A stretch of DNA of 64,000 nucleotides, from assembly GCA_902573015.1 (NCBI GenBank), contig CACGIE010000003.1, positions 10,589 through 74,588 on the forward strand. Reading direction: 5' to 3'. The notes beneath the pieces are model-generated. The model was not told where the DNA came from. It saw nothing but the letters and a program-made list of their open reading frames with translations, and did not search any database. A program made the position numbers and the translations under genes. The stretch comes from an uncultured Candidatus Poseidoniales archaeon (GTDB taxonomy: Archaea; Thermoplasmatota; Poseidoniia; Poseidoniales; Thalassarchaeaceae). The number at the start of each line of letters is the position of its first letter. The first letter of the stretch is position 1. Below are positions 973 to 24,658 of the stretch, piece by piece.

Positions 973-1147
973 AAGGGGTGAATTTCTGAGAGTTTTGTCT
1001 ATTTCCAACTTGATAACCCGGTTTATACGACTAGAATTAGATATTTTATTCTAGAGGTAATTGAAAATTGAATAAAAATTTAGATTTAGCAGTAATATTT
1101 TCTTTGGACCCCAATTATTGGAATAGTAGAACATTTGCCACAAAGAT

Positions 1148-2650: not shown

Positions 2651-2651
2651 A

Positions 2652-3314: not shown

Positions 3315-3320
3315 ATTGAA

Positions 3321-4421
3321 TTGAAAGGTGATTGCATGGGCAAATTGGGGTTTGATTTCTCTCTGGAAAGGGAGACTGGGTGGCTCTTCGGTTCTGATGT
3401 TATTGCTATGTTATCCGGCCTTATCGGCCAGGCAATTCTCTTCTGGGCCCTATCGGGAGAGGATTATGGAATGTTTGTTATAGCCATGGATACTTGTTTC
3501 ACTGTACTAGTTCTACTAGATTCTGGATTATCGGCCAGAGTAACAAGAGACGTGGGTGCTTTGGGAGACTTGGGTGGCGTCCTAGTGAAAAGAGTCGTGG
3601 GCATACAACTTTTTTTGGGTGTGATATTTGGGGCGATTACTCTGTTCTTATTGATGAACTACTGGACAATCCCCTGGCAAATTGGTTCAATCCTAATCAT
3701 AACTGGAGTTGCCACTCACGTCATCTCAATGACTCACAGAGGGGCATTGAGAAGTATTGGTCTGGCGAAATATGAAGCAGGATCAAGAATAATCGAAAGG
3801 TTTGGAATGACCTGTGGATATGCAACTTTGGCCTTTTTTGGGGTGCATGAGGCCGAGGAATATGCCTCAGTTGCTGGTGTTTTTTTCCTGATGGGTGGTT
3901 TTTTCTCGATGCATAAATGGTCGAAGAATAAGGCCACTGAAATCGGAACTAATGAGTTGCAATGGAGCATAAAGGATCTAATTGTCCCATCTTTGCCGTT
4001 TGCTGCTGGATTTTTCCTATTAACTTTGAATTTTAGAATACCAAAGCTCCTCCTGGGATATTCGACGGGATTTGAAGAAGTTGGGATATTCAATGTTGCT
4101 ATGATAGGTTTCTCAGCGGCCCTAGCTGTACCCAATGCCATATGGCAAACTGCCCAACCAGCCTTTGGAAAGATGAATAATCAATCGGACAGGGGGGCGA
4201 GGTCTGAAATATTCTCAAGATCAAGAAGAATTGCGAGATTTGGTTTGATTATTGGATTGCCAACGGCATTAATAGCAGGGAAGATTGGATTTCCATTATT
4301 GTTTGTTGACTCGATTCCAGAAGAGGATTTCTCTATATTCGGAATATTCTCCATACTAATGCTTGGGTGGAGCGCTATATTACTTACATCTCCAGATTGG
4401 GGGGGGAGTAATGGGGAGTGA
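3321..4421 (+). CDS. Wzx/MOP-type polysaccharide flippase, N-terminal ~3/4. The ORF is broken at a G8 tract.
   Basis: Multi-TM ORF (an ATG also occurs at 3336) whose helix/loop pattern is typical of polysaccharide biosynthesis (Wzx-like) transporters. The frame ends ...LTSPDWGGSNGE* just after the G8 run at 4399-4406. Confidence 0.5.
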   Translation: MKGDCMGKLGFDFSLERETGWLFGSDVIAMLSGLIGQAILFWALSGEDYGMFVIAMDTCFTVLVLLDSGLSARVTRDVGALGDLGGVLVKRVVGIQLFLGVIFGAITLFLLMNYWTIPWQIGSILIITGVATHVISMTHRGALRSIGLAKYEAGSRIIERFGMTCGYATLAFFGVHEAEEYASVAGVFFLMGGFFSMHKWSKNKATEIGTNELQWSIKDLIVPSLPFAAGFFLLTLNFRIPKLLLGYSTGFEEVGIFNVAMIGFSAALAVPNAIWQTAQPAFGKMNNQSDRGARSEIFSRSRRIARFGLIIGLPTALIAGKIGFPLLFVDSIPEEDFSIFGIFSILMLGWSAILLTSPDWGGSNGE

Positions 4422-4767
4422 GAAGCCTGTAGGTTACTCTTTGTCCATAGGACTATTTGTGCTGATTCAAGTTTTTGGCTTCGTTTATTTTGGGCCAGAT
4501 TACGGAGTGGAAGAGTCTTCAATTTGTTTCTCCATCGGGGCGATGTCATCATCAGCAGTCTACCTGATTTGTACTGCCATTTCGGATGGGCTTCATGAGT
4601 TTTCGATTGGAATTTTGGAGTTCTCAATAGGAATTCTATACGCAATCTTAGCAATATGGAGTATTGTAGGGGGAAATATTGTTAGCATTGTCTCTTGTAT
4701 TGTAATTATGTTTCTGTGGGCTGTTTTGTCAGAAGTAATTAGTAAACCACAAGTCCTTAATTCTTGA
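4363..4767 (+). CDS. Probable C-terminal TM segments of the same flippase, in a different frame
   Basis: 134-aa hydrophobic ORF overlapping the previous one across the G8 tract. A 1-nt indel would join ...SPDWGG to VMGSEKPVGYSLSIGLFVLIQ..., giving a ~480-aa transporter. Confidence 0.45.
   Translation: MGGALYYLHLQIGGGVMGSEKPVGYSLSIGLFVLIQVFGFVYFGPDYGVEESSICFSIGAMSSSAVYLICTAISDGLHEFSIGILEFSIGILYAILAIWSIVGGNIVSIVSCIVIMFLWAVLSEVISKPQVLNS
4399..4406 (+). repeat. G8 homopolymer at a TGG-GGG-GG (Trp-Gly-Gly) site that coincides with the flippase ORF break
   Basis: Read directly: gattGGGGGGGGagta. Confidence 0.9.
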
Positions 4768-4803
4768 TAGATTTGTGATAAATGTAGTAATTTTGGAGTG
4801 AAT

Positions 4804-6759: not shown

Positions 6760-6769
6760 GGTCTAAGTA

Positions 6770-8572
6770 ATGGGCGCAATTTCACTCAGAATTTCTCAGA
6801 TTAGAAGGCTCATCAGTAGAGACCCGAGGGATATTCTGAAATTCTCATTCTTTATGCTTAGGAGAATACCTCAATCAATTATTGACAGGTATGTGATTAG
6901 ATTTGGCCATTCTAACATTAGTATATCTGGACATCCAAAGAAAGTAACTAACGCAAAAAGTCCGATGATTGACTCTGAGGAATTGATTGAATTTGGAAGG
7001 AGAGCGATGAGTGAAAAGAAACTAGATTTATTAGGCAAGGAGATAGGTTTTACATGGCCTCCAAACTGGGAGGGAGGTGAATTGGGAGAATGGCCTAAAG
7101 GCCATAGTCAGGCCATACAATATTACGGAATCGATACGAAAAAGGACATTAAAATAATCTGGGAATTCCATAGGCTTCAATGGCTACCATCAATAGCTGC
7201 TTTGTCTAAAATTAATGAAGATAAAGTACTGGCAAGTGAAATTCTAGATCTCATTATAGATTATGAAGATAAACACATTGTGAATAAAACCGTTGCTTGG
7301 ATGGAGGGAATTGAAGTATCGATGAGGGCAATCTCGATACTAGAGGCTATGTCGTGGCTTGACGAAATAATAGAGGAAGATGAAAGATTTTCTAGAATAT
7401 ACCAATTCCTCTCCAAACATGCGGAATGGATATCGTCTCACTTATCTTTAAAATGGAGATTGAACAATAATCACCTCCTTGTAGAGTTAATCGGACTACT
7501 GGTTTTGAGTGAGAGAATTAGTTGGGATGCAAGGGCTCGGAAATGGAAGGAAAGGTCTCTCAGGATTCTGGAAAATGAGCTTAATGATCAAATAACAAAT
7601 GGAAGGAACTGGGAGCCTACCACATCATATCACAAACTAATTACTGAAGGTCTGTTGATTGTAAATCACCATTGCTTTGATGGAGAGATCGCAGAAAATT
7701 CGATTGGAGACATCACAAACAAGATGGTTAGAACGTTGTCATTACTTTCTGATTCTGAAGGCAATATGCCACTTGTCGGAGACGATGATGGCGGCTCTAT
7801 GCTACCAATTTACGTCGGAAAGGATATCAGAAAAAACTCGGAGATTTTTGAAATTGCCGCACGAATGGGTTTTGATTTGGAAACTCCAGAGTCGGTTTGC
7901 CATTATTGGGAGGGACAGGGGATGGGAGTGATTAGAAGCGAAGATAAACATGTACATTTTGTTTCCGGAGCCCCCCTGGGGAAAGCTCGACAAGGAAGTC
8001 ATAGACACCTGGATATGCTATCATTTACCTTAAGCATGGATGGAAAGCCAATAATATTCGACGGAGGTACAGGGCAATATTTCGGAGATGAAGAAATTAG
8101 AAACCAGTACAGATTGGAGGCTTTTCATTCTGGAATATACTCACGAACCTCACATTGGGCTGTAATAAAGGGACTATTCGAGATACCAAGACCCCCGGTT
8201 GGAAAATTCGAACTATATGGCGAGGATGTGAAAATTAGTTGCGAACATCCGTCGGGCGGGTGGGCTGAAAGAATAATTTCCCTAGAAAAATCTGAAGTCA
8301 GAATTTTAGACAGTTTAGAATTACAGGATCCTTCAGTCGTGTTCATTGTTTCGGAAGCCGGACATGTGGAGGTTTCCAACGGGACATGGTCAATGAAATG
8401 GGATGATTGGGAGATCGTACATGACCCCATTCCTGCAAAATTCATTGGGACTGAAGATATGAAGTCTATTGGATACGGAACATATGACGGGTGCTATAGA
8501 ATAGAATTTTACCATAATCAAGGTGTTAAGTGTACTACAAGAATCATCAATTTGAATGATGAGAAGAGTTAG
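6770..8572 (+). CDS. Heparinase II/III-like family protein
   Basis: 600 aa. NNHLLVEL and GSHRHLDMLSFTL...DGGTGQY motifs are typical of the heparinase II/III-like domain. This family commonly sits next to asnB in surface-polysaccharide clusters. Confidence 0.7.
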   Translation: MGAISLRISQIRRLISRDPRDILKFSFFMLRRIPQSIIDRYVIRFGHSNISISGHPKKVTNAKSPMIDSEELIEFGRRAMSEKKLDLLGKEIGFTWPPNWEGGELGEWPKGHSQAIQYYGIDTKKDIKIIWEFHRLQWLPSIAALSKINEDKVLASEILDLIIDYEDKHIVNKTVAWMEGIEVSMRAISILEAMSWLDEIIEEDERFSRIYQFLSKHAEWISSHLSLKWRLNNNHLLVELIGLLVLSERISWDARARKWKERSLRILENELNDQITNGRNWEPTTSYHKLITEGLLIVNHHCFDGEIAENSIGDITNKMVRTLSLLSDSEGNMPLVGDDDGGSMLPIYVGKDIRKNSEIFEIAARMGFDLETPESVCHYWEGQGMGVIRSEDKHVHFVSGAPLGKARQGSHRHLDMLSFTLSMDGKPIIFDGGTGQYFGDEEIRNQYRLEAFHSGIYSRTSHWAVIKGLFEIPRPPVGKFELYGEDVKISCEHPSGGWAERIISLEKSEVRILDSLELQDPSVVFIVSEAGHVEVSNGTWSMKWDDWEIVHDPIPAKFIGTEDMKSIGYGTYDGCYRIEFYHNQGVKCTTRIINLNDEKS

Positions 8573-9641
8573 AGTTTATCGATTTCAAATAAATTGAGAA
8601 TAGCTCTTTCCTATATCCTTGAACGTCCAATCTCTTTGCTGTTAATTTAGCTTGATTAGAGAGTCTTTCAAGAAGATCCTCGTCCCTCACTAATCGACAA
8701 ATTGCATCGGATATCGCCGTTATATCTCCCGGTTCAACGATCAAGCCATTTCTGTCATGCTCGATTACTTCAGGGATTCCTCCTACTGGCGTGACTATTG
8801 GGACTTGGCCAATTGCCATAGCTTCGATCATTGCCATAGGGAGGCCCTCATCATAAGATGGGAGCAGGAAAATTGATGCTGAGTTTCTAATTAATTGGAA
8901 TTCATTATTAGGTAGCCAGTGCTCAATCCTCGCTAATGTTCCTAGATTCTTCAGATCAACATATCTTTCCAACTTCTCATGCTCACCGTCTCCAGTAGCA
9001 ACGAATCTTACCTTCTCAGAGACATCTTGTGGTAGTTGAGAAAGTGCATCGATAGTGTCATAGCTTCCCTTTCTGACACCTATTCTACCATTTGATGTGA
9101 TTAATATCTTCTCAGATTTATTTTCTTCGAAATTCTGTGAAAGTGCATCGAAATCTACAGGATTCCGCATAACAACTATTCTTTCTGACGAGAGTGAACA
9201 AATGCCTGAGTAGAATTCCTTCCACGATTCTGACAGGACTACTAGAGATGACGCGCGATTGAGAAAAAGTCGAATTATTGCTTTCCTTATTGGGCCAGAC
9301 TCATTCTGATAGAATTTCTTGAATTCAGCACCATGAGAATGTAAAACGACTGGAATCCGAAAAAGAGAAGATAGTACTGCGAATGGTAATTTCCTCCAGG
9401 TACTTCCTCTTGAAGCGAAGTGGATATGTACTAAATCGGGTCTAAAAATAAGTTTCGGAAGGAAACGAATCCATGAAAAGATACCTTGGAATAATTTGAT
9501 TATTTTTCCTGTGTCAGTTGTTGTAGCTAGAAGAGTTACAGAAGCCCCGTCAATCTGATCTCCTACCAGTAACCTCTCCACCGAAGAGACTCCGCCTCTA
9601 ACCCTTAAATCTGGGCCAATCATTACTACTCTTTTTATCAT
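8547..9641 (-). CDS. Glycosyltransferase family 4 (GT-B, retaining)
   Basis: C-terminal EGLPMAMIEAMAIGQVPIVTPVGGIPEVI (E-x7-E region), N-terminal GGV motif, 364 aa. Confidence 0.85.
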   Translation of the reverse strand: MIKRVVMIGPDLRVRGGVSSVERLLVGDQIDGASVTLLATTTDTGKIIKLFQGIFSWIRFLPKLIFRPDLVHIHFASRGSTWRKLPFAVLSSLFRIPVVLHSHGAEFKKFYQNESGPIRKAIIRLFLNRASSLVVLSESWKEFYSGICSLSSERIVVMRNPVDFDALSQNFEENKSEKILITSNGRIGVRKGSYDTIDALSQLPQDVSEKVRFVATGDGEHEKLERYVDLKNLGTLARIEHWLPNNEFQLIRNSASIFLLPSYDEGLPMAMIEAMAIGQVPIVTPVGGIPEVIEHDRNGLIVEPGDITAISDAICRLVRDEDLLERLSNQAKLTAKRLDVQGYRKELFSIYLKSINSNSSHHSN

Positions 9642-10337
9642 CTTTGGCTACATCCTTCCCCAATTTAAAGATGGATCAAGAAGTTCGATATCGTTTGAAT
9701 CTACCCAGAACCTACAAGCTCCGGGTACTTCTCCTGCTAGATAAAAATCCGAATATAAGTCAGCTGGAAGGCCCGCACGAGTAAAGTCATCAGAGTCAAG
9801 ATCGGCTGTCTCTAGAACTGCTGAGAAGTATGTTCCTGAACCAGGAAATTGCTCCAAGAAAAATACTTGAGGTATAGCAATTTCATCGCCCAGCCTCTCA
9901 AAGTATTGGAAATTCTCATTGTCGGACATAGGAAGCATGGAATGTGAGAATAAAACGATATTTGTCTCTCGAGAATGCTCGTACATGAGGCCTACAATTC
10001 CAGCCTCTTCAGTCATCTCCCAGCATTTGTGAGTTTCACTTGGGAGAATCAGAGTTCGGGATGAGTAGTTCACATGAGCAAAGGAGGAAAGAGATCCTGA
10101 AATTATCGATAGGACTGCAAAGAATGTAACGGCCTTCTTCTTATCCCAAAATTCCACGTCAATCTTCTTATTGAGAAGTGATAGCCCAGCCATGAACCAT
10201 ATACAGAACGGAACAATGCTGTATGCCAGAAGTCTAGGAACTAATCTCGCTGCTCCCATTCTCGAGTCAATGAAAAACATCAGAGGTAACATCAGGATAC
10301 ATCCAATTACAATACTCAAATTGGTCGTTCCACTTTT

Positions 10338-10346
10338 CCCCCCCCC
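10338..10346 (-). repeat. G9 homopolymer on the coding strand at ...DIWGG, coinciding with an ORF break
   Basis: Read directly: ttttCCCCCCCCCaaat on the + strand. Confidence 0.9.
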
Positions 10347-10790
10347 AAATATCTCCATCTCTAATTCCAAATTTCCTCTCAACTATTTTGGAAACGAGTA
10401 TGGCAAAAACCAGAGGAGTTAGCAAATGCCAGAACTCAACAATTTCTCCCAATTCTCCTGGAAACTGTCTGATGAAGCTGAACTTTGCCACGGTAAAATT
10501 CCAGTAGATAAAAGAGGAACCTAGAACAAACGCCTGCTTCCTAGCGAGACTTGATCTCTCGACCCTCATAAATGACTCAGTAATTAGAATTGAGCCTAGA
10601 ATCAGAGAGGTCTGAAGATGGCAAGTGGGGATCAGAGCCAGAATTGCATAGCTTCCTAACTTTCCAATATCACTTCTTGGGGACCAGTGAATTACTGTCG
10701 CCGCCATCAAAAGGCTCAGCATTTGAGCAGTGTATTGTAGGGGACTCCACCATGATACCATAAGGAAACAAACAAATGTAAAAGTCGGCA

Positions 10791-10797
10791 CCCCCCC
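10791..10797 (-). repeat. G7 homopolymer on the coding strand at ...NTWGG, coinciding with an ORF break
   Basis: Read directly: ggcaCCCCCCCaag on the + strand. Confidence 0.9.
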
Positions 10798-11347
10798 AAG
10801 TATTCACAAATTCTGAGTCCTTTACAGAATTGGCAACCAGAGAAATCCACAAGCAACTGACGGCAATTCCACAGACGGCTGCAACAAGGGGCGGGGAGCC
10901 AGGAAATATTCTAGAGAATGTATCCAAGATAATCAATGAAAGCATACGAGACAGATAACCCTCTGTGTGGTCATTTCCATACTCTCCGTATCGATCTGCA
11001 ATTTGAACGAACCACCATCCATCTTCGGCAATAGGAGATGGTTCTGCGAATTGTGGACTTAGTATTATTAGAAGAAAAACAAGATTTATCGAAGTCAACC
11101 TTGTAATGGGAGTCAACTTATTCTGAAATCCTGCCATGGTAAGTGTGGCAATTGACGCCCCAATCATAATTGGAATCATGGGCGTCCACATGAATCTAGA
11201 AGCGTAAGGCGACGGAATCGACTCTTTTGGATCATCTGGGGATAGGAAATACAGAATAAAAACAAGGATCGCAAAAATATGTCCCAAAATTACGATTGGA
11301 TCGGTATTACGAATTTTCATTATCGCATCATTAACGCTGAATTTCAA

Positions 11348-14300
11348 CTATTCACCCCTTGTACTAATCCAAACTACCAATACAAAGTTGGCAAATAGGC
11401 CGTAAAGGATAAGCATTATCGGTAACTTATCACCTTTGATGTGAACTAAACTATCTTCTCGGTCTAATATCCCATCTCCGTCCTGATCGAATATGCAATC
11501 CGTCGATGAGGTTGAGGAGTTTTGCAGAGTATAACCTCCTGAGGTACACGGCCTAAATTCGGCAGAGCCGGATGTTGAAACAAATGTGTTTATCGGGGCA
11601 ACTAAGCATGAAGTGGCTCTGTTTTCGGGTTGGTATGTCCCTGGTGCGCACAGTGTTGGAGATGTTGATCCCTCCATTTCCGCAAATGTTCCCGGAATTG
11701 TCCCCCTGCAGTCCGAAGATGATTTTGCCCGGGGTTCGGGAGAAAATGTGCCAACAGGGCATAGACTAGGGGCTGAAGATCCAGCAAACGAGAATTTTCC
11801 TGCTGGAGTTTCGAGACATTCGTCCCCCCTTAGCCATTCTTCCGAGTTCCTATACGTCCCAGCAGGGCACATCTTTTGCTCAGAATTTGCTTCAGACTTG
11901 GCAAAATATCCATTTGAAACAGAAATACAGGATATCGATCCAAAATCGGGTTGATATGTTCCAGGCGGACAAGGTAGGGCGAGGTTTCTAGAATTAGTGG
12001 GAACATAATAACCCGGGTCAGAAGTCAAACATTCGTAAGATCCAGAGTGTGGTTGATAGGTCCCATTGGGGCAAGTTTTTTGTTCTGTGGAACCCATTGA
12101 ATCGACGAAACTTCCAGGATCAGAGAGTATACAAAATGAGGAGGAGTGCGATGGTTGGAAAGTTCCTAAGTCGCATGGCAACTGAGAAATTGTTCCGTTG
12201 TAGGGAGAAAAATATCCCGGATCTGTTTGAATGCAATTAGACATGCCCTGAACTGGCTGATATGACCCTGGTGGGCAAGGAATTTCGGAATTATTGTCCA
12301 TAGATAGATAGTATCCCTGTCTGACAATACGGCACTCATCTATTGAAATTGAAGACCAAATTTCATTGAAAGAACCATTTGGACATGGGGATTGAGATGT
12401 CGAACCCGTGGAATCGACGTAATTTCCGGGAGAGGATGCTAGACATTCTTGTTGTCCCAACAACGGTTGAAAGGTCCCTAAGGGGCAAATCTCCACATTA
12501 TTGTTGGGATTGATGAAAAATCCAGGCATTGATAAGCAATCTGATATGGATTTTGACGCTAAATTGACTGTAGTCGAGTTTCCAGGACACTGTATTTGAA
12601 AACTTGACATCGCAGAATCGACATAATATCCCAACTGAGACTTGATACAGCTTGAGGTCGATGTGTTTGGCTGAAAGAAACCAGGAACGCAAGGTAACTG
12701 CCTTGTTTCTCCAATTCCATTAGTGTAATTTCCAGGCGATGATTCTATGCATAGCGATTGTCCAGATATTGGTTGGAATGAACCTGGTTGACATGATATG
12801 GGAGAAGGGCTGCCAATCGGAGAATAGGTTCCAATCGGAGATTGCTGACAAGTGGCAATAGAAGTTGCGCCGATTACTGGTGAAAATGTGCCCGGAGGAC
12901 ATGGACTCGGTGAGGAAGAGCCCTCATAGTCGATGTAGTGACCGGGGGGAGAAGGTATTTGATTCGGTACACCACCAAGGGAGAAGTACCCAATTGATGT
13001 GTTTTGACAGGATTCTAGGGATGTTGCTGATTCTTGATTCGAATATGTTCCTGGTGGGCAGGGAATCTGCGATGATGCCCCTATTGAATCAACATAAAAT
13101 CCAGGAGTGGCTAATTGGCAACTAAACTGTCCAGGATATGGTTGGAATTCCCCTAGTGGGCAGGGAGAAAATGCAGATCCGCTATTTTCATCGATAAAGT
13201 TCCCCGGGAGTGGGCTCAGGCAGTCACTAATTGAAGTAGAATTAATTGATATTGTAGATGAGTTTTCTGGGCATTCATTCTGAGTGGAAGAGCCATTAGA
13301 ATCTACATAAAATCCTACATCAGAAGACAAGCAAGTAGACTGGCCCCCAAGAGGTTGAAATGTGCCCAATGAGCAATTATGGAAGGAGTCGCTGCCCGAT
13401 AATGAGTAGTTTCCGGGAGGCGTAATTTGGCATTGCAATATTGAAACGGAAGAGGAGTTGTAATTGTAGGTCCCCACTGGACAAGGTTTCTGTGATGATG
13501 CAGCGAAATCATCAACAAAATAACCCGGAGATGAAGGATGGCAATTAGACTGCCCTTCTAATGGCTGGAAAAATCCTCTAGGGCAAGGGAATGTCTGATT
13601 TGAGCCAATGATGTCAACATAATGTCCAGATGGGGAAATTAGGCATATTGATTGAGAAATATTGGGCTGAAAGTATCCAGCCCCACAGGCTATCTGGAAG
13701 GTAGAGTTCTCAGATTCAACGAAAAATCCTGGAGATGAGTCGATGCAATCGGAGCTCGACCAATCTGGTTGAAATTTCCCCGAGGGGCATGGTATCGGTT
13801 CGGAAAAACCCTGAAGAGAGAAGGTCCCTGGTGGACTTTTCTGACAACTATTTATCGAAGAAGAGCCAAAATCTGGGTTATAGGTCCCTGATGGACAAGG
13901 AGTCTCGAAAGAAGATCCATGTCCTGGGACATAATAACCTGGATTGGCCAGAATACAGTTATTTTTTCCGACGAGATTCTGAAATTCCCCAGGAGGGCAT
14001 TCTTTTCCAGAAGTTGCCGAGGCGACGTCGGAATAGTTTCCCTTGCCTGCATTAATGCAACTTCCTTGTCCCGAGGATGGTTGGAAGGTCCCTGGTTGAC
14101 AACTAAACTGGATTGGAGAACCTTCCGGAGTCCAATAGCCCGGGTCGGTAATTTGGCAGTTATCAGCTATCGAGCCACTTTCATTGGAAAATGTTCCAGG
14201 GGGGCATGGTATCGGAGATTCGGCTCCCATGAAATCAACATATGTGCCTGGAGGAGAAACTGTGCATGAAGTCTGTCCGAAGTTCGATTGGAACGTGCCC

Positions 14301-14680
14301 ATCGGGCAATTCTGGAATGAAATTGATTTAAACTCCGGAATGAAGGTTCCAGGAGGAGAGTCTTCGCAATAATGGTAGCCAAATGACCCGGGGGGACATA
14401 TTATCGATCGTTCGTAGTCTCTTGGGAAGTCATCTGCATGATTCAATACCCCATCTTTATCATAATCGAATGATTCCAGCTTAATTCCCCCCATGATAGC
14501 TGATTCAGTTTGCTGAACCCCAATTCTAGAGCAAGATAGTTCGGATGCGTTAACTTCTACGTAGCAATAATCATCCAATCCAATTGCCAAAGTAGGGTAT
14601 ATTGCCGGAATTAATGACGATTTCATCCCCCCCCCAGCAGTCAGATAGTCCGTCCAATTCAAGAATGCAAATTGAACCAA
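11348..14680 (-). CDS. Giant Cys-repeat cell-surface protein. It has GCC2_GCC3/ephrin-receptor-like CPxGT(F/Y)QP modules, Asp-rich Ca-binding-like motifs and a C-terminal TM anchor. It is probably the C-terminal part of a fusion with the upstream RCC1 ORF.
   Basis: By hand count there are ~28 C-x(9-16)-C modules, for example CPPGTYQPDFGSISC, CPLGTFQPLLGQQEC and CQPGSFQPISGQSLC. Each is followed by (S/D)PG(Y/F)(Y/F)V. DYDKDGVLNHADD lies near the N-terminus and DQDGDGILDRED near the C-terminus. The last ~25 aa are hydrophobic (LPIMLILYGLFANFVLVVWI). There is no convincing signal peptide of its own. Confidence 0.75.
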   Translation of the reverse strand: MVQFAFLNWTDYLTAGGGMKSSLIPAIYPTLAIGLDDYCYVEVNASELSCSRIGVQQTESAIMGGIKLESFDYDKDGVLNHADDFPRDYERSIICPPGSFGYHYCEDSPPGTFIPEFKSISFQNCPMGTFQSNFGQTSCTVSPPGTYVDFMGAESPIPCPPGTFSNESGSIADNCQITDPGYWTPEGSPIQFSCQPGTFQPSSGQGSCINAGKGNYSDVASATSGKECPPGEFQNLVGKNNCILANPGYYVPGHGSSFETPCPSGTYNPDFGSSSINSCQKSPPGTFSLQGFSEPIPCPSGKFQPDWSSSDCIDSSPGFFVESENSTFQIACGAGYFQPNISQSICLISPSGHYVDIIGSNQTFPCPRGFFQPLEGQSNCHPSSPGYFVDDFAASSQKPCPVGTYNYNSSSVSILQCQITPPGNYSLSGSDSFHNCSLGTFQPLGGQSTCLSSDVGFYVDSNGSSTQNECPENSSTISINSTSISDCLSPLPGNFIDENSGSAFSPCPLGEFQPYPGQFSCQLATPGFYVDSIGASSQIPCPPGTYSNQESATSLESCQNTSIGYFSLGGVPNQIPSPPGHYIDYEGSSSPSPCPPGTFSPVIGATSIATCQQSPIGTYSPIGSPSPISCQPGSFQPISGQSLCIESSPGNYTNGIGETRQLPCVPGFFQPNTSTSSCIKSQLGYYVDSAMSSFQIQCPGNSTTVNLASKSISDCLSMPGFFINPNNNVEICPLGTFQPLLGQQECLASSPGNYVDSTGSTSQSPCPNGSFNEIWSSISIDECRIVRQGYYLSMDNNSEIPCPPGSYQPVQGMSNCIQTDPGYFSPYNGTISQLPCDLGTFQPSHSSSFCILSDPGSFVDSMGSTEQKTCPNGTYQPHSGSYECLTSDPGYYVPTNSRNLALPCPPGTYQPDFGSISCISVSNGYFAKSEANSEQKMCPAGTYRNSEEWLRGDECLETPAGKFSFAGSSAPSLCPVGTFSPEPRAKSSSDCRGTIPGTFAEMEGSTSPTLCAPGTYQPENRATSCLVAPINTFVSTSGSAEFRPCTSGGYTLQNSSTSSTDCIFDQDGDGILDREDSLVHIKGDKLPIMLILYGLFANFVLVVWISTRGE
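11500..14401 (-). repeat. Degenerate in-frame tandem array of ~30-35 codons per unit that encodes the Cys-pair modules
   Basis: The periodicity is seen at protein level. The DNA copies are diverged, so this is not a CRISPR array or a satellite. Confidence 0.7.
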
Positions 14681-15647
14681 AACCAGAAGAAATTATCCTG
14701 GGATTTGTCAAATTGTGATCTATCTTTACAGGGGATTCCGTTGCTTCGAACCCAAGAGATTCGAGATTGCCCCAGCATTCAAAGTCGCCTGAAAAGGTAA
14801 GAGCGCATGTGTAATATTCTCCAAGTGAAATTGCTAAAATCCTACCGAAAACATGGGTTTCATTCCGCAAGGGTGGGCTATAGTCAATATTCTCCTCAGA
14901 AACTTGGTTATGCGAGTTATCGCCCCAGCATCTAACTGTTCTATCGGATAAAATAGAGCAAGCATGATGTTTCCCGCTCGAAATAGAGATTGCCTTCTCC
15001 GAACGTCCATCAATTATCTTAGTGGGAGGAAGGGGTGGGTTCTGTTGTGAATTGAGCGGATTATCTCCGAAATTCCCCCAGCACCAAACACTCCCTGCTA
15101 GCGTTAAAGCGCATGAGTGAAATTTCCCTGAAGAAGAAGAAATTGCCGCTTCTCCGCCAATACCGATAACAGAAGGAGGGGAGAAAAATTCATTCTCAAT
15201 CTTCCCGGAGCTTTGTCCGAACGAATCCTGACCCCAACAAATCACCAAAGATCTTTCAGAAATCGAGCATGTATGTCGATATCCAGAGCTAAGACTTGCA
15301 AAATTTCCGAATTCCCCTGTTTCGATAGAGAAAAAAGAAATTCCACTACCTTTAGAACCTAGTTGACCATAGAAATTTCCTCCCTTACAGTTAACTGATT
15401 CTTCTTGCGCTATCCAGCAAACGTGATCCTTTCCGACGGAGATTTTTGATCCCTCAAACCCTTCTTGGAAACCTATTGCCTCACTAATGCTCGAGCCTGA
15501 AGCGTCAGAATAGTTTTCGGAATCATCTACAACGAATGAGTTTTTCATTGACGGACTGACTAGATAAGACGACAATATGATCATTACCAGCACCAAGCGC
15601 CGAGAGTGAGAAGACACCTTTGGGCTCATGGTGATTCTTGGGGGCAA
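14571..15647 (-). CDS. Secreted RCC1-repeat (beta-propeller) protein, probably the N-terminal part of the giant surface protein
   Basis: The N-terminal hydrophobic signal is LVLVMIILSSYLV. At least 6 RCC1-like blades are present: CKGGNFYGQLG, CWGQDSFGQSSG, CWGNFGDN, CWGDNSHNQV, CWGNLES and CWGG. Confidence 0.75.
   Translation of the reverse strand: MPPRITMSPKVSSHSRRLVLVMIILSSYLVSPSMKNSFVVDDSENYSDASGSSISEAIGFQEGFEGSKISVGKDHVCWIAQEESVNCKGGNFYGQLGSKGSGISFFSIETGEFGNFASLSSGYRHTCSISERSLVICWGQDSFGQSSGKIENEFFSPPSVIGIGGEAAISSSSGKFHSCALTLAGSVWCWGNFGDNPLNSQQNPPLPPTKIIDGRSEKAISISSGKHHACSILSDRTVRCWGDNSHNQVSEENIDYSPPLRNETHVFGRILAISLGEYYTCALTFSGDFECWGNLESLGFEATESPVKIDHNLTNPRIISSGFGSICILELDGLSDCWGGDEIVINSGNIPYFGNWIG
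14627..14635 (-). repeat. G9 homopolymer on the coding strand at ...DCWGG, lying between the RCC1 ORF and the Cys-repeat ORF
   Basis: Read directly: catCCCCCCCCCagcag on the + strand. Removing one G reads ...LSDCWGGMKSSLIPAIYPTLAIGLDDYCYVEV... continuously. Confidence 0.9.
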
Positions 15648-15738
15648 CGTGTATTAAAAAATCCATTCTCGCACATCCTCGTAGAGTAGTTTACAAAGTA
15701 CTGAAATTTGGATTTGATACAAGGGAAATCGTGATAGC

Positions 15739-17448
15739 ATGAAGAAGACATGGGTTGCAATCATATTTTGCTCACTTGTCCTCTCTGTATTGATTGGAAA
15801 GTATTTCGAAGGAACGGATCCGTTGCCATCGGATTTTAATGATGACAGAAACAAGGAAGTTGTAATATTCTCATCATTCCAAGAGTTCTCTATTGACTCC
15901 GGGGTTGATTTCATGGAGAACGAAATGGATGTCATTCCACCTCTACCTGCAGGTACTAGAATCTTTCAAAGACAAATTGACATCATTGGGGATCCGATAG
16001 ATTCGATGGGAGATAGTGTTTGCATAATTACCGGAGACTTAGGGAGTCTTTGCTGGCAGGGAGACGAAGGAGAATATCAAGTTGAAAGAAGAAGTTCAAA
16101 GCATGTAGAAGGATTGCCAGAGGGAGGTTTCGTTTCCATTGCAACTGGACAGAACCATACATGTGCAATGCATGATTCACTCATTGGTATAAGTTTGGTT
16201 TGCTGGGGCTCAAACTGGTACGGGCAGACTGGCGGGAGTTCGCAAACTAGTACAAACTGGAATGTTCTGCAGGCCGAAAATGGAAATTGGACTTCACTGG
16301 ATGCAGGAAGAATTCACACTTGTGGAGTAAGCGGGGGCGATGTATTTTGTTGGGGGGATGGTTCAAGGGGGCAGATCGGAGATGGGTTTAGTTCGCAATC
16401 CAGTACCCCAATTGAAATCGAAATTGGCGCTGAAGAAATTGTGAAAGTTATCTCAGGCAGTTTTCATAATTGTGCCCTCACAGGGCTAGGAGACGTTTTC
16501 TGTTGGGGATGGAACGGATTTGGGCAGATTGGGGATGGTAGTTTTGATGATGCATTTGTTCCAAGAGAGGTGATCTTTCCTAACGGGGAAATCATTGAAG
16601 ACATAGAGGTAGGGGAATCCCACAATTGTGCAAAAGCAAGGAGTGGCTCGATATTCTGTTGGGGAAACAATCTAGAAAACCAGATCTCGCCAAACAGAAA
16701 TTATTCCTCCTCGATTCCAGTAAAAACATTTCAAAATGTTGCTAGAGATGAGGTTATTTCCTTGGGGGCTAGTAGTTCGTGTGTGATTTTCAGTCATGAT
16801 TACGAATGTCTGGGAGAATTTAGAGATCATCAAATTCCTGATTTGAGTAGAATTACGAGTTTTTCTTCTGGGAGTGGTTTTTTCTGCTACATTCTACATG
16901 GAGAAAATGTAAATTGTAGAGGTACGAATGTTGACTTTGTACCTAGGGAAGCTCTAACTATTTCTCCGCCGACTTCAGTATGGCCCGGGTTAATTTCAGG
17001 AGTTGTGCTCACCGAAGAAAGTTCAAATCATCGAATCATGAGAGTTAACGAAAGTGTTCCACTGGCAAACATTTCATTTGTAGTTCAATTGGGAAGCGAT
17101 ACGGATTTCGATGGATGGTCTGATCTAGAAGAGGAGGAGTGCGACTCAAATAGTGCAGAAAGACTGTCAAAGCCAATTGATACGGATAAGGATGGTGTCT
17201 GCAACCATATCGACAATGATGACGATAATGATGGTTTTTCAGATGATGATGATTCCTTCCCATTGGACGTAAATGAGTGGAAAGACAATGATAAAGACGG
17301 CATAGGGAGTAATAGTGATAGTTTCGAAGTTACTACCCCTGTGGTTGGCGCAATAATTACCGGTTCGATACTCTTGATTATTTTTCTCTTGGAGGCACGA
17401 GAGATTTTTCAACTCTCCAGAACTTTTAATCACGAGGAAGAGGAGTGA
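15739..17448 (+). CDS. RCC1-repeat surface protein with Asp-rich (thrombospondin type-3-like) Ca-binding motifs and a C-terminal TM anchor
   Basis: The signal anchor is WVAIIFCSLVLSVLI. About 7 blades are present, including CWGSNWYGQTGG, CWGDGSRGQIGDG, CWGWNGFGQIGDG and CWGNNLENQ. Asp-rich motifs are DTDFDGWSD, DTDKDGVCNHIDNDDDNDGFSDDDD and DNDKDGIGSNSD. The C-terminal TM segment is VVGAIITGSILLIIFLL. Confidence 0.8.
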   Translation: MKKTWVAIIFCSLVLSVLIGKYFEGTDPLPSDFNDDRNKEVVIFSSFQEFSIDSGVDFMENEMDVIPPLPAGTRIFQRQIDIIGDPIDSMGDSVCIITGDLGSLCWQGDEGEYQVERRSSKHVEGLPEGGFVSIATGQNHTCAMHDSLIGISLVCWGSNWYGQTGGSSQTSTNWNVLQAENGNWTSLDAGRIHTCGVSGGDVFCWGDGSRGQIGDGFSSQSSTPIEIEIGAEEIVKVISGSFHNCALTGLGDVFCWGWNGFGQIGDGSFDDAFVPREVIFPNGEIIEDIEVGESHNCAKARSGSIFCWGNNLENQISPNRNYSSSIPVKTFQNVARDEVISLGASSSCVIFSHDYECLGEFRDHQIPDLSRITSFSSGSGFFCYILHGENVNCRGTNVDFVPREALTISPPTSVWPGLISGVVLTEESSNHRIMRVNESVPLANISFVVQLGSDTDFDGWSDLEEEECDSNSAERLSKPIDTDKDGVCNHIDNDDDNDGFSDDDDSFPLDVNEWKDNDKDGIGSNSDSFEVTTPVVGAIITGSILLIIFLLEAREIFQLSRTFNHEEEE

Positions 17449-18848
17449 AAATAGTGATTTCTTTCGGCCTTGGAATAAAGATTTATGATTCTCTGCCTCA
17501 AACTATCCAAGGAATAATTGGGAAAATATTAGCTCCAATTCCACTGAGTTGGAGAGGTCACAGAGGAGTATTCAATTTGGCAGAAAGAATCTCCGAACCA
17601 ATTACAATCGATGAGTTAAATGAAAAAGAGAGTGAGGCCTTGTCGGAACTGGTAAGACATGCTTACGAAAATGTTCCGTACTACAAGGACTTGTTCTCAG
17701 AGAAGAAAATTGACCCTAGAGACGTAAGGTGCATCACAGACCTGCAAAGTTTACCAATACTAACAAAGAGCGATGTGAGAAAAAATGGAAGCGATCTTAT
17801 TGCCAGTGATGCAAAGAAATATTCTCCTGGAAAGGTTAGAACATCGGGCTCTACCGGGGAACCTCTAGAGTTCCTAATCGATCAAAGAACAAGACTCTCA
17901 GAATATGCAGCGGAATGGAGGTGCATCCTAGAAAATGATGGGGAACTAGGTGGTAAGACGGCAACATTTCGAGGAAATTACTACAGAAACCATCGAAAGG
18001 TCGGAGCAAGCTGGTTCAGACACGCATTGTCGGGGGATTTGATTTTCAATACGTTCTCGATGGACGAGGAAACCTGCAGGAAATATATTACAAAGTTAAG
18101 GAGTTTCAGTCCTGAAATCTTCAGAGCTTTCCCTTCAAGCCTATCCCATCTTGCTAGATTTGTTGAAAGAGGTAAAATCAACGAACATGCTATCGCCTTT
18201 TGCTCTTCTGAAATGATGAGCGAAGAAATGGAGGATTTGATTCAAACTAGAATTTGTAACACTGTAATAAACTGGTACAGCCAATCGGAGTATGTACTAT
18301 CTGCCGGAACGTGTAGAGAAGGAAACATGCACATCAACTCGGAGTTTGGAATAATCGAGGTTCTCGATGAAGAGGGAAAACCGGTTCCAGACGGTACAGT
18401 TGGAAGATTAGTAGGAACTAGTCTTACGAACTTCTCTCAGCCGTTTATAAGATATGATTTGGATGACTTGGGTGCAATATCGGAAACTCGCTGTAAATGT
18501 GGTAGGCCCCATAGGATCCTACAGAGAATATCGGGCAGGCATTCCGATCTGATAGTCACTCCCGATGATAGGACCCTGAGTACTGTACAAATGCAACATT
18601 GGTGGAAGCACCAAGCAGTCAAAGAATGGGATTTAGATCACTTTGATTGGATCCAGTTGATTCAAACCGATATTTGCTCTTTCAGAATTCTTGTAGTTTC
18701 AAAATCCGGAGTTGAGATTCAGAATTATCATGAAAATATGGAAATGGCATTATCGGATCTCTGGGGCACAGAAGTTTCAGTTTCTATTCAAGATTTAGAC
18801 ACGATGCCCCATGGGGAGAAGTGGAGATTCTCGAAATCAGAGATTTGA
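17445..18848 (+). CDS. Adenylate-forming enzyme of the phenylacetate-CoA ligase / coenzyme F390 synthetase (CapK-like) family
   Basis: RTSGSTGEPL AMP-binding motif, ~460 aa, layout typical of the PaaK/CapK family. Its GTG start overlaps the upstream stop as GTGA. Confidence 0.7.
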   Translation: MKIVISFGLGIKIYDSLPQTIQGIIGKILAPIPLSWRGHRGVFNLAERISEPITIDELNEKESEALSELVRHAYENVPYYKDLFSEKKIDPRDVRCITDLQSLPILTKSDVRKNGSDLIASDAKKYSPGKVRTSGSTGEPLEFLIDQRTRLSEYAAEWRCILENDGELGGKTATFRGNYYRNHRKVGASWFRHALSGDLIFNTFSMDEETCRKYITKLRSFSPEIFRAFPSSLSHLARFVERGKINEHAIAFCSSEMMSEEMEDLIQTRICNTVINWYSQSEYVLSAGTCREGNMHINSEFGIIEVLDEEGKPVPDGTVGRLVGTSLTNFSQPFIRYDLDDLGAISETRCKCGRPHRILQRISGRHSDLIVTPDDRTLSTVQMQHWWKHQAVKEWDLDHFDWIQLIQTDICSFRILVVSKSGVEIQNYHENMEMALSDLWGTEVSVSIQDLDTMPHGEKWRFSKSEI

Positions 18849-18925
18849 TGGTGGACGCTGGGGGATTTGAACCCCCGGCCTTCTGGTTGCAAACCAGACG
18901 ATCTTCCAGGCTGATCTAAGCGCCC
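18849..18925 (-). tRNA. tRNA-Ala (anticodon UGC) with genomically encoded 3' CCA
   Basis: Folded by hand: GGGCGCT/AGCGTCC acceptor stem with the G3:U70 Ala identity pair, anticodon loop TTTGCAA, T-loop GGGGG-TTCAAAT-CCCCC, then A-CCA. 77 nt. Confidence 0.9.
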
Positions 18926-18976
18926 TAACCAGTCGGAGAGGCAACTCATTATTGAGTCAAACCGTAGTAATGAAGT

Positions 18977-19615
18977 CTAATCACGAGTAATCAGGCTAGG
19001 AGAGATTGCCATGATTCCCATTAGAGAAGTGAATAGGATAACCACAAGAAGGTCCCTGCTGGCGTCCTCTGATCTTTCTTGAGATATTTGGGGCGGACCT
19101 ACTTCTGGTTCAGGCTGATTGTGCACGTCTTCCATGAAAGTTACAGACAAGTGCTCCTCTAACAGAAGGGAGTCATTCATTATTTGATGCCGTAGTTGGA
19201 TAGTTCCTGGCAGGAGACCGCTCTCCGGTCCCAGCAATATTGTCTCTGTTACCATACATGACTTGTCCGCCTTGCTGCCATTTTCGTCCAGATCACAAGA
19301 TCCGCTGAGCCAGTTAGTAGAGAAGTCATCTGAACCATTGAACAGACCGTCATCATCAGCATCGAACTGGATTCTGTGACTAACCCCCTCCCTATCGTCC
19401 ACGTTCATGAAGAACAGAAAGTCAGTCTGTACAAGGACATCGTCCGGAATGGTCTGAGGGGTCGTGCCCTCATGAGTCAGTAGAATCGTGTACTCCTTAG
19501 GCTCGTGAGCTGAAACTACCGACGAGAGAAATGAGGCTAGTAAGATGGAAGTGAATGCAAGTGCAGCTATTCTCACATGTCCCGGATAGTATGCGATGGC
19601 TTGAACATGACTCAC
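18977..19615 (-). CDS. Exported, C-terminally anchored small protein, possibly with a cupredoxin-like beta-sandwich; function unknown
   Basis: Signal peptide AALAFTSILLASFLSSVVSA, the segment FLFFMNVDDREGVSHRIQFDADDDGLFNGSDD, two Cys, an acidic linker and a terminal TM segment (LLVVILFTSLMGIMAI). The architecture matches ORF 23373-23906. Confidence 0.4.
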   Translation of the reverse strand: MSHVQAIAYYPGHVRIAALAFTSILLASFLSSVVSAHEPKEYTILLTHEGTTPQTIPDDVLVQTDFLFFMNVDDREGVSHRIQFDADDDGLFNGSDDFSTNWLSGSCDLDENGSKADKSCMVTETILLGPESGLLPGTIQLRHQIMNDSLLLEEHLSVTFMEDVHNQPEPEVGPPQISQERSEDASRDLLVVILFTSLMGIMAISPSLITRD

Positions 19616-19629
19616 CTTATGGGAGGGGC

Positions 19630-21378
19630 ATGGACAGGCAGAGGGCAGCTATGGCTTTGGCATTGACTGCTTGCGTAGTGGTAGCAGGAGCATCGACATT
19701 ACTGTTGTTGCAAGATAGCGAAGTCAGAATTTCGAATGATTCTGAATCAATGGTGGACCCATTACTGCAAGACGAGGGTCATGATCATAGGAATGCCAGC
19801 CAACACATCCTCTACACGGAAAACATCCAACCGGTTTCATTCAATGCTCTGACTGCGCCGGGCAATGCTGAGGTCCAGGTTTCAGACTCCCCGGATGGTA
19901 GGAGATACGCGTACATTGCAGGATGGAGCGAGATGCACATCGTCGATGTTACTGACCCAACTAATACTATTGTAACCGGGGTCTACGTGGACCCAAATAC
20001 CCAGGTTCTCGATGTCAAGTACCTAGTCTACAACAACAGGGAGTATGTGATTGTCCAAAACCAACTGGTTGACCCGGGGGCTGCAGATCCCAATGTCGGA
20101 GAGTGGGGCGATCCTGCTCAGGTTACGGTAACTCTCGTTGACGTGACTGACAAATATGAGCCTACATTCGTCGATGCCTGGTACGATGCAGATCACCCAA
20201 GCGGCCCCCACAACCTGTATACTCACATGATCGATAACGAGTGGTACATCTTCGTGGCCAACCCCGACTACGAGTCATGTGACATAGGGCAGGGAGATGC
20301 TTGTGGGGGGATCACGGTTGCGCATCTGAACTTCGCAGGATATGGGGATTTACCCCGGATCGTGAAAGTGGGAGAGGCAGAGGTGAGTTGGGAAACCACG
20401 AGAGGAGGATGGATCTACATACACGACATGACGGTCCAGACATGGCCTGGAGAGGACTCCAGTGATCCGCGATTTGGCAGGACATACGTCTATGGGGCAT
20501 ACTGGGAAGCCGGACTGAGGATTTTCGATGTATCCGATGTCCCGCATCCGGGCAAGGACATGGTTGAGTACCTAGCCATAGCAGCTGCCTGTCGTGGATC
20601 ATTCGGGACGCAATTGGGTTGCAACTGGAGAGCTCCGGAGGTAGGGCTATGGATGGACTTCGAGGACTTCGATGGCGACGGGCAACCAGACAGTGGGACA
20701 ACTGGGAATGAGAATGGGGGGAGGGCCTCATACATCCACTATGCCGAGCCAATAGACGAAATGGTAGATGCCACCCATCTTGGATACCCTTCTGGCAAGA
20801 TTCACATGACGATCATAGCTACTGAAGTCCTAGAGACCACAGTAGGCACAGGGATGGCATACCTGCTGGACACTACTCCCTATGAGGTCGTGAATGGGAA
20901 TGTAAGATTCCTGCCCCAGCTCATCCACGGTTGGGAGACCCCGTTCGCAGATCATCACTTCATCCCAGGGGGGGAAGAGTGGCTGCTATTCAGTCCGCAT
21001 AATGCCGATCATGAGATTTTCCAGACGGGTCTGCCAGGGTTTCCGGACAATAGCCATGGTGGTGCTTGGGACGGTAGGATATACATGGGCAACTACCACT
21101 CCGGACTGTGGGTTATCGACATCGAGTCCCTAATGGTGGCAGGACTTGAGAACGGTAACAAGACTGAGGCTCACATGGAGTCGACAGTTGGTTACCACCT
21201 CCCTCATGGAGCCGATGGGGCCCCGCTTGACAGTTCGTACTACGACTTCGGATGGACGCCATTCATCTGGGCGGCTGAGCACTACAAGGGCTATACGTAC
21301 TTGTCATGTATCACCACCGGATTGTACATTGTCCAACTCGATATAGACGAGCCCTATGGAAACTCTATCTCGTTATGA
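19630..21378 (+). CDS. LVIVD-repeat beta-propeller protein, exported via an N-terminal signal anchor
   Basis: LVIVD-type strands are EMHIVDVTDPTN, VTLVDVTDKYEP, GLRIFDVSDVPHP, GLWVIDIESL and GLYIVQLD. I chose the ATG at 19630 because it removes the overlap with the divergent gene and precedes the TM segment AAMALALTACVVVAGASTLLLL. Confidence 0.7.
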   Translation: MDRQRAAMALALTACVVVAGASTLLLLQDSEVRISNDSESMVDPLLQDEGHDHRNASQHILYTENIQPVSFNALTAPGNAEVQVSDSPDGRRYAYIAGWSEMHIVDVTDPTNTIVTGVYVDPNTQVLDVKYLVYNNREYVIVQNQLVDPGAADPNVGEWGDPAQVTVTLVDVTDKYEPTFVDAWYDADHPSGPHNLYTHMIDNEWYIFVANPDYESCDIGQGDACGGITVAHLNFAGYGDLPRIVKVGEAEVSWETTRGGWIYIHDMTVQTWPGEDSSDPRFGRTYVYGAYWEAGLRIFDVSDVPHPGKDMVEYLAIAAACRGSFGTQLGCNWRAPEVGLWMDFEDFDGDGQPDSGTTGNENGGRASYIHYAEPIDEMVDATHLGYPSGKIHMTIIATEVLETTVGTGMAYLLDTTPYEVVNGNVRFLPQLIHGWETPFADHHFIPGGEEWLLFSPHNADHEIFQTGLPGFPDNSHGGAWDGRIYMGNYHSGLWVIDIESLMVAGLENGNKTEAHMESTVGYHLPHGADGAPLDSSYYDFGWTPFIWAAEHYKGYTYLSCITTGLYIVQLDIDEPYGNSISL

Positions 21379-21406
21379 AGTGACCATACTAATTGGGTGC
21401 AGTTTC

Positions 21407-21414
21407 ATAAAATA
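21407..21414 (+). promoter_or_regulatory. Candidate archaeal TATA box (ATAAAATA) ~20-25 nt upstream of the ATG at 21434, which would imply a leaderless or near-leaderless transcript
   Basis: It is the only AT-rich block in the 55-nt intergenic spacer. The spacing fits a TATA-to-TSS distance. Confidence 0.3.
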
Positions 21415-21433
21415 GGTATCCCCGGATAGGGAC

Positions 21434-24631: not shown

Positions 24632-24658
24632 AATAATCCCTAACTAGGAAGCAAGACT

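Follow-up and report, generated by a model that had tools for sequence, protein, structure and literature searches.

The window analysed here, a stretch of 64,000 nucleotides (nt) of contig CACGIE010000003.1 from an uncultured Candidatus Poseidoniales archaeon, carries on its minus strand a gene for a long surface protein, termed gene 3 in the following, that is interrupted by a single surplus G. The RCC1 part and the Ephrin_rec_like part of this gene appear as two open reading frames (ORFs A and B) of 358 and 1110 amino acids (aa), respectively, which share a 110-nt overlap. The coding-strand sequence of the overlap includes GAC TGC TGG GGG GGG G ATG AAA, in which the run is exactly G9. The ORF coordinates and the overlap at the G9 run (14627-14635) are precisely those given in the original prediction, according to which one protein is encoded here in two ORFs separated by one G. 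Removal of one G indeed yields a single ORF of 1,432 codons starting from TTG at position 15647, or of 1,426 codons starting from ATG at 15629, and fused orthologues exist. The corrected reading over the junction, LSDCWGGMKSSLIPAIYPTLAIGLDDYCYVEV, is identical to the translation of the intact gene in the nearest strain (contig L015), and the peptides …SDCWGGMK and SSLIPAIYPTLAIGLDDYCYVEVNASELSCSR would span the junction. As the frameshifted pieces are also present in the deposited NCBI sequence (P0240, P0334, P0335, P0342, P0338, P0339), the split is a property of the public record and not an artefact of window extraction. The positions of all features are given in Table 1.

Gene 3 and its orthologues

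Gene 3 is almost certainly one gene and not two, encoding a type-I membrane glycoprotein of a Candidatus Thalassarchaeaceae archaeon of Marine Group II (MGII). The archaeal host assumed in the original prediction was the correct one, and the cluster names of housekeeping proteins encoded in the window place it in Ca. Thalassarchaeaceae (MGIIb). A search with the N-terminal 643 aa of the fused product matched P0001-P0005 and P0013 over 91-99% of the query, all of them single chains that combine RCC1 with PF07699. Across the junction, P0001 shares 45% identity with the fused product; remoter members of the family are 30-37% identical. The alignment is unbroken over the junction, reading CWGG-MKSSLIPAIYPTLAIGLDDYCYVEVNASELSC in the window and CWGA-MGEVAIPAIRPSIAISEKQYCYVAIEKSALEC in the relative. 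In the segment following the tract lies the signature of a seventh propeller blade, in which C361, V363 and C372 are invariant in alignment A1, as is the D-x-D-x-DG motif. ORF A alone would be an incomplete propeller because this seventh signature sits beyond the tract. A search with the stalk returned about 75 further protein clusters with both domains, mostly of 1,000-1,100 aa and from Poseidoniales, and a scan of GTDB genomes added relatives in one Poseidoniaceae metagenome-assembled genome (MAG) and in one MAG labelled 'Methanobacteriota archaeon'. The named clusters are annotated as hypothetical proteins of 'Candidatus Thalassarchaeaceae archaeon' (P0129, P0133) or 'Euryarchaeota archaeon' (P0134, P0135).

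Within the species, all 8 assemblies that cross the gene 3 tract (96-99% identical) carry the intact gene, and the encoded orthologues are 93-96% identical to the gene 3 product at the protein level. One group of strains, called the L009 type here (L005 and L009-L013; Tara-derived assemblies from ENA, JGI and NCBI), is 96-97% identical to the window and contains intact gene 3 (1,423 aa), an intact downstream gene (565 aa) and an intact flippase gene (476 aa). The nearest strain, represented by the MDTA01 contigs L014, L015 and L016, is 98.8-99.3% identical and in frame wherever it overlaps the window. The same holds for the independent contigs L020 and L017, which match the window at the nearest-strain level (98.8-99.3%). 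The Tara catalogue gene P0121, classified as 'complete', is likewise intact with 1,396 aa and 96% identical over the stalk. A 134-aa truncated copy on L019 (ERZ840905, 2x coverage; 1150-1258) was set aside as its contig end diverges from all strains and is probably an assembly-end artefact. A 9-nt in-frame indel in a propeller loop (GATAATCCG, encoding D-N-P; 15057-15065) is present in the window and in the near strain and absent from the L009-type strain.

Gene callers output two ORFs at this locus, which is what two real genes, one for a secreted RCC1 protein and one for a separate Cys-repeat protein, would produce. ORF B, however, is devoid of a signal peptide, the seventh propeller blade falls into ORF B, the split occurs in no relative, and only single chains were encountered in the family. 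We therefore give an arrangement of two genes practically no credence. Orthologues present as two separate genes had been named in the original prediction, along with a fixed G9 in reads, as the observation that would speak against it; the orthologues consistently form a single gene.

Table 1. Positions of the genes, domains and G tracts in the window and the state of the tracts in related strains.
Feature	Position	Strand	Description	Related strains
Gene 3, RCC1 / Ephrin_rec_like / TM surface protein	11348..15647	-	One gene after removal of one G	
ORF A, RCC1 part	14571..15647	-	358 aa	
ORF B, Ephrin_rec_like part	11348..14680	-	1110 aa	
Predicted N-terminal signal peptide or signal anchor (…RRLVLVMIILSSYLVSPS)	15549..15647	-	Inferred from sequence; AlphaFold2 (AF2) helix at residues 13-29	
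RCC1-like propeller, blades 1-6	14628..15449	-	One C-x10-C pair per blade; Pfam, AF2, Foldseek	
Tract in gene 3	14627..14635	-	Coding-strand G9; in-frame length G8, encodes W-G-G	Nearest strain pure G8 (TGG GGG GGG ATG, W-G-G-M); L009 type GGGGAGGG
Degenerate 7th blade (LAIGLDDYCYVEVNASELSC) and linker	14399..14626	-	Sequence conservation; DYDKDG at 14450-14467	
Stalk	11495..14398	-	28 two-Cys modules of ~34 aa each, CPxGT[FY]Q…C…PGx[FY]; Pfam, AF2, Foldseek	
Membrane-proximal DQDGDG and C-terminal transmembrane (TM) helix	11363..11488	-	DQDGDG 11471-11488; TM helix 11363-11425; 4-residue tail TRGE	
Gene 2, multi-pass membrane protein	9648..11347	-	565 aa corrected; three ORFs in window; begins directly after gene 3 stop	
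First tract in gene 2	10791..10797	-	Coding-strand G7; in-frame G6 (W-G-V)	Nearest strain (L016) pure G6; L009 type GGGGTG
Second tract in gene 2	10338..10346	-	Coding-strand G9; in-frame G8 (W-G-G)	G8 in L005, L009-L013, L016, L017
Polysacc_synt (Wzx-type) flippase	3321..4767	+	476-481 aa corrected; split into 366-aa and 134-aa ORFs; Pfam	
Tract in flippase	4399..4406	+	G8; in-frame length 7 nt	GGGGAGG in L014, L020; L009 type GGGGGAG
Divergent RCC1 propeller, Asp-rich region and TM helix protein	15739..17448	+	569 aa; Pfam; neighbour of gene 3	

Four +1 G breaks in three linked genes

The G9 tract recognized in the original prediction is real in the record, but it had been treated alone, though it is one of four +1 G frameshifts in three linked genes, and therefore the tract has to be read differently. 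The genes concerned are gene 3, the multi-pass membrane protein gene directly behind it (gene 2) and a Wzx-type flippase gene. All of them lie in a low-GC surface/glycan island that occupies positions 1-19000 of the window (GC 0.41-0.44 vs about 0.50 in the core, 19000-64000) and has its boundary near tRNA-Ala (18849-18925). When the intact L002 orthologue of gene 2 was compared with the window by tblastn, it matched in three successive frames, with breaks at the G7 and the G9 tract. Gene 2 is intact in L009-L013 and L016, and L009 and L014 have an unbroken flippase gene (476 aa). Each of the four breaks is cured by removal of exactly one G, giving clean full-length ORFs, and all four tracts open at a Trp-Gly codon pair (TGG GGN). 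Neither the pieces of gene 2 nor its corrected product matched a Pfam or NCBIfam family; a Wzz match at E = 0.06 was disregarded.

Tract lengths were read from assembled consensus sequences throughout. In about 19 kb compared with the nearest strain, which contain about 170 substitutions, the four tracts are the sole coding indels, and one further indel of 1 nt lies beside tRNA-Ala. The 27 A/T runs of at least 6 in the window show no visible shift in length, nor do the 8 other G/C runs of 7, and A/T run lengths are identical between the window and L005. The G8 tract of gene 2 is constant in at least four assembled sequence types (L009/L010/L011, L016, L017); L009, L010 and L011 are mutually 98.9-99.5% identical, with every difference outside the island. 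One scan each of the metagenome and genome collections revealed no OFF alleles in further strains of the species.

The same +1 correction at all four sites, the same U-GGG-GGG-G context and the selection acting on the downstream frames are features expected of programmed recoding, in which the +1 state would be the normal genotype and the full-length protein would arise by +1 ribosomal frameshifting or transcriptional slippage. The shift is, however, not conserved: at every site the frame is kept in strains of 98.8-99.3% identity and in all orthologues, whose tracts are often interrupted. No stimulatory element was noticed, and none was searched for. Recoding is thus a very improbable explanation.

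The age of the breaks was approached through the ratio of non-synonymous to synonymous substitution rates (dN/dS, ω), computed for the window vs L005 in the corrected frames, with branches polarised by means of the near strain and the L009 type. For gene 3, dN/dS is 0.22 (0.24 in the part before the tract, 0.21 in the part behind it). The values are 0.036 for gene 2, based on 16 synonymous and 2 non-synonymous differences, and 0.21 for the flippase gene. The window-specific branch has 16 synonymous (S) and 14 non-synonymous (N) changes, and S:N on the other branches is similar (23:9 and 109:66); the neutral ratio is about 1:3. The downstream frames have thus been under purifying selection for essentially the whole divergence, and because they still show it, the breaks, if genuine, are recent or reversible. 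Disruption of three adjacent genes, one of them twice, might suggest long-standing pseudogenes, the surface module having decayed in the lineage and the ORFs being relics. Yet after removal of the four Gs neither stop codons nor further indels are left, ω amounts to 0.04-0.22 and is alike on both sides of the tracts, and the window branch is far from neutral (S=16, N=14). Old decay is thus largely refuted.

Origin of the additional bases

We regard it as an even call that the split of gene 3 is a genuine recent +1 G slipped-strand insertion (G8 to G9) in the W-G-G run, which leaves the surface module OFF in the sequenced cell or clone. The additional Gs would then be present in the DNA of the organism, and the tracts would switch. 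This reading draws on the distribution of the affected runs. The G7-class and G6-class shifts both lie in the three genes that contain the only G8 tracts (1 of 9 and 7 of 33 tracts, respectively; joint p about 0.024). A chance landing of the G7- and G6-class shifts in this place would be improbable, which speaks for biology over random error.

Further support comes from the abundance of G/C runs of 6 or more, which was compared with synonymous-codon shuffles of the same genes. Island genes show an approximately twofold excess: those of the window contain 14 such runs vs 5.8 expected (P<0.001). The excess is also found in the island of the Illumina-assembled sister strain L009 (10 vs 5.5 expected, P=0.039) and in that of another species, L002 (11 vs 5.1 expected, P=0.008). 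The core genes of the window show no enrichment (13 vs 12.3 expected), and A/T runs are not in excess over the shuffles. As the G runs exceed the expectation from codon usage in island genes, they behave like contingency tracts. Two further ideas about the G runs were rejected. Substitutions that lengthen runs are as balanced in the window as in the near strain, which excludes a general G-homogenising bias in the record. GGG is not a rare codon, which would have given the tracts an engineered look, as it accounts for 24% of Gly codons; the excess is visible solely in the shuffle test.

The rates known for such sequences are compatible with a change on this time scale. In M. tuberculosis, neutral homopolymer frameshifts occur at about 100 times the substitution rate (PMC10334774), and indel rates in mismatch repair-deficient bacteria climb with run length (PMC5854121). 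Because homopolymer frameshifts are about 100 times as frequent as substitutions, an unconstrained G8 plausibly changes at about 1% divergence.

Several observations weigh against slippage. All four changes go in one direction, +1 G, and two of them hit a single gene under very strong constraint (omega 0.036). One change is from G6 to G7, and a G6 run would be expected to slip slowly. In the flippase, an A-to-G substitution is required besides the insertion relative to strains that are 99.2-99.3% identical. The other assemblies are all in frame (8 at the gene 3 tract, 9 at the G8 tract of gene 2 and 8 at the flippase), OFF lengths are confined to one record, and there is no sign of relaxed selection. 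Moreover, wrong homopolymer lengths are the error typically left behind in assemblies from long-read or flow-based sequencing.

Most of these points fit a consensus or sequencing error, in which the true runs would be G8, G6, G8 and G7, each over-called by one base, and the genes would be intact. Four shifts that are all +1 and all fall on G runs ranking as the longest of the island, or nearly so, are what such over-calling would produce, as is selection on the downstream frames that is indistinguishable from that in the intact relatives. Coverage of the island is probably lower and strain-specific, which could concentrate errors there, and the clustering might simply reflect poor coverage of the island if the assembly was long-read or flow-based. 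On the other side, the record is otherwise free of length errors over about 19 kb vs the near strain, including the 27 A/T and 8 other G/C runs, and errors of the G6 and G7 class would need to land by chance in genes already holding G8 tracts (p about 0.024). Short-read consensus seldom mis-sizes runs of G7-G9, which also counts against error. We consider such an error a serious possibility, somewhat short of an even chance.

The wider proposal following from slippage is that the poly-G runs of the MGII surface/glycan island are contingency tracts, in which gain or loss of one G switches the fibril formed by the gene 3 product, its partner membrane protein and a glycan flippase. We put this forward tentatively and consider it rather unlikely at present. 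Surface-structure genes of Campylobacter jejuni are poly-G/C contingency loci. Like poly-G/C contingency loci (those of C. jejuni and the tracts of M. tuberculosis, PMC10334774), the island has G runs of 7-9 in surface and glycan coding regions. A one-base length change would alter the frame, related strains carry interrupted, 'locked' tracts, and the runs are enriched beyond codon expectation. The island is unlike them in that OFF lengths occur in one record, the organism is a free-living planktonic archaeon, and one tract is in frame at only G6. On the basis of assembled sequences, the poly-G behaviour thus appears to resemble that of bacterial contingency loci in several respects.

If the four +1 G tracts are real, an entire surface/glycan module of a free-living archaeon would be under the control of hypermutable G runs. 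This would extend the contingency-locus idea past host-associated bacteria and provide a mechanism for strain-level surface diversity in glycan islands, with heritable and reversible loss of a surface structure, e.g. under virus or grazer pressure. To our knowledge, no homopolymer phase-variation system has so far been described in marine archaea. If the tracts are errors, the case is a warning that split 'novel' ORFs can stem from G runs of 7-9 in the island genes of archaeal assemblies in public databases.

Architecture of the surface protein and its genomic setting

Both ORFs of gene 3 were searched against Pfam and NCBIfam profiles, with Pfam matches reported at E<=0.01 and scores judged against the Pfam gathering cutoffs. 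The first ORF matches RCC1_2 (PF13540) with 103.8 bits (cutoff 22) and RCC1 (PF00415) with 24.0 bits (cutoff 21.7); WD40_RLD (PF25390) scores 104 bits, below its cutoff of 150. The second ORF matches Ephrin_rec_like (PF07699, formerly GCC2_GCC3) in 11 stretches with 269.5 bits (cutoff 23.1; E = 7e-82). NCBIfam gave no match for either ORF, and no S-layer family was matched in the Pfam and NCBIfam searches of both. A role as the main envelope protein, raised as a possibility in the original prediction, gains no support from any of the results.

The corrected product contains 70 Cys residues, 14 in seven C-x10-C pairs of the propeller region and 56 in the 28 stalk modules. Six of the C-x10-C blade signatures precede the tract, and the seventh (C361-x10-C372) follows it. 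The approximate numbers of six blades in the first ORF and, by hand count, 28 GCC2_GCC3-like modules in the second, as given in the original prediction, are borne out by these signatures, and both family assignments by profile scores above the cutoffs, far above in the case of PF07699. Two DxDxDG motifs are present, DYDKDG at residue 394 and DQDGDG at residue 1387. The predicted DxDxDG motifs therefore stood and the suggested relation to TSP_3 did not, since PF02412 was not reported for either ORF at E<=0.01 and merely the two isolated motifs were seen. Hydrophobic segments lie at both ends of the fused protein, one at the N-terminus and one as a C-terminal helix (residues 1408-1428) followed by TRGE, consistent with the predicted signal peptide on the first ORF and TM anchor on the second. 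P0005 and P0013 show the same C-terminal pattern. N-x-S/T sequons number 24 vs 14.5 expected from composition, and 19 of the 24 lie within the stalk (residues 417-1384). The Ser content is 16%.

The proposed profile searches, run on the two ORFs, recovered RCC1 and PF07699, and the proposed structure prediction gave models of the propeller and of part of the stalk. In the AF2 model of fused residues 1-573, with a predicted local distance difference test (pLDDT) score of 74 overall, residues 67-340 form a confident RCC1-type propeller (pLDDT 85-94). Foldseek matched this model to UVR8, RCC1, RPGR and HERC2 at probability 1.0, and also to the CRINKLY4 ectodomain. At blade 7 (residues 342-391) pLDDT falls below 50, so that the count of seven blades rests on the conserved C-x10-C and hydrophobic pattern. 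A stalk model of nine modules (m0dd6b0eca12f) has a pLDDT of 94.7 and shows two-residue beta bridges in an elongated array. Its top Foldseek matches are the mastigoneme filament proteins 9b4h and 8wa2 (E = 5e-18, TMq 0.68-0.69), followed by Elapor1 and TNFR cysteine-rich domains. At the sequence level the stalk had zero matches in the PDB, where the fold search alone was informative. Beyond Poseidoniales, its next sequence matches are MEGF6, notch-like and oomycete proteins. Together with an algal mastigoneme protein as the top fold match, this agrees with the earlier view of the repeat as typical of eukaryotes.

From these features we propose a surface fibril in the order signal peptide, seven-bladed RCC1-like propeller, DxDxDG, rod of 28 modules, DxDxDG and transmembrane anchor. 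The protein would be exported by the Sec pathway, and its C-terminal helix would anchor the C-terminus in the membrane, leaving a cytoplasmic tail of 4 residues. The C-x10-C pairs of the blades may form disulfides. The DxDxDG loops, which are probably calcium-binding, would flank the rod at both ends. The 28 modules might stack into a rigid, N-glycosylated fibril like the mastigoneme shaft, probably tens of nanometres in length, and the propeller at the distal tip of the rod might serve as a ligand-binding head. The position of the 565-aa gene 2 directly behind gene 3 suggests co-transcription of both.

The stalk and the Chlamydomonas reinhardtii mastigoneme protein (PDB 9b4h, 8wa2, 8tx1) have in common an extended array of cysteine-stapled beta-hairpin modules, with only about 20% sequence identity. 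The mastigoneme protein forms polymeric filaments on the eukaryotic flagellum, whereas the gene 3 product is predicted to be a single membrane-anchored chain with a propeller head. PF07699 is common to the stalk and to Elapor1, MEGF6, SCUBE-type proteins and the Cys-rich region of ephrin receptors. In contrast to these eukaryotic proteins, the stalk modules contain only two Cys per ~34 aa, are repeated 28 times in tandem, are archaeal and are joined to an RCC1 propeller. TNFR cysteine-rich domains stand among the next fold matches. The plant CRINKLY4 ectodomain (PDB 7a0k) likewise consists of an extracellular RCC1-like propeller, then a TNFR-like Cys-rich region, then a TM helix. The resemblance is confined to the layout, as CRINKLY4 combines a single Cys-rich domain with a cytoplasmic kinase, and the gene 3 product has 28 modules and a 4-residue tail and lacks a signalling domain.

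The architecture had been called unusual for an archaeon; it is lineage-wide instead, being found in more than 70 Poseidoniales protein clusters. The domain combination represents a widespread and so far undescribed Poseidoniales family, of which the window copy is an unusually long member, and literature searches combining MGII with RCC1 and GCC2_GCC3 with archaea found no published description of it. Variation in stalk length gives family members of about 700 to 1,430 aa. After removal of one G, the window copy shares domain order, signal peptide, DxDxDG linker and C-terminal anchor with this family. It is longer, with 28 modules and 1,432 aa; the usual size is 1,000-1,100 aa, and P0005 and P0013 have 700 aa. 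Its deposited sequence also differs in being frameshifted.

Few uncultured microbes of the surface ocean are as abundant as the Marine Group II archaea, and we are aware of almost no information on their cell surface. The locus defines an unannotated, lineage-wide family with an RCC1 propeller head on a long cysteine-stapled rod, the nearest solved relative of this rod being an algal flagellar hair. Its members are thus concrete candidates for proteins that attach the cell to particles or phytoplankton or that serve as a virus receptor.

The neighbourhood of gene 3, with the divergent RCC1-TM gene upstream and the ~565-aa membrane protein gene directly downstream, is kept in L002 and L009-L013. 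Further island genes encode GT4 glycosyltransferases, a heparinase II/III-like protein and an AsnB-type amidotransferase in addition to the Wzx-type flippase. The 569-aa RCC1-TM gene overlaps by 4 nt with a gene for a LuxE-like acyl-protein synthetase of 467 aa (17445-18848, plus strand), and in L002 (207-3305) the RCC1-TM and LuxE-like parts are called as a single 1,032-aa protein. The L002 island also contains an in-frame G9 at 10024 in a Hepar_II_III-like gene and an in-frame G8 at 13269 in a SIS-domain gene. In L017 (1-5216; ERZ840905), the last 352 codons of the 565-aa gene stand behind other genes (methyltransferases, CTP_transf_3, AP_endonuc_2), and this changed gene set points to island mosaicism or to recombination inside that gene. 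A scan with a sigma-70 promoter and terminator model, which is not meaningful for an archaeon, gave nothing notable. Just outside the island, the stretches 19555-23371 and 23903-25768 encode two proteins with LVIVD repeats (607 and 645 aa) and a SCO1/SenC pair, one member of which contains a weak TSP_3-like stretch.

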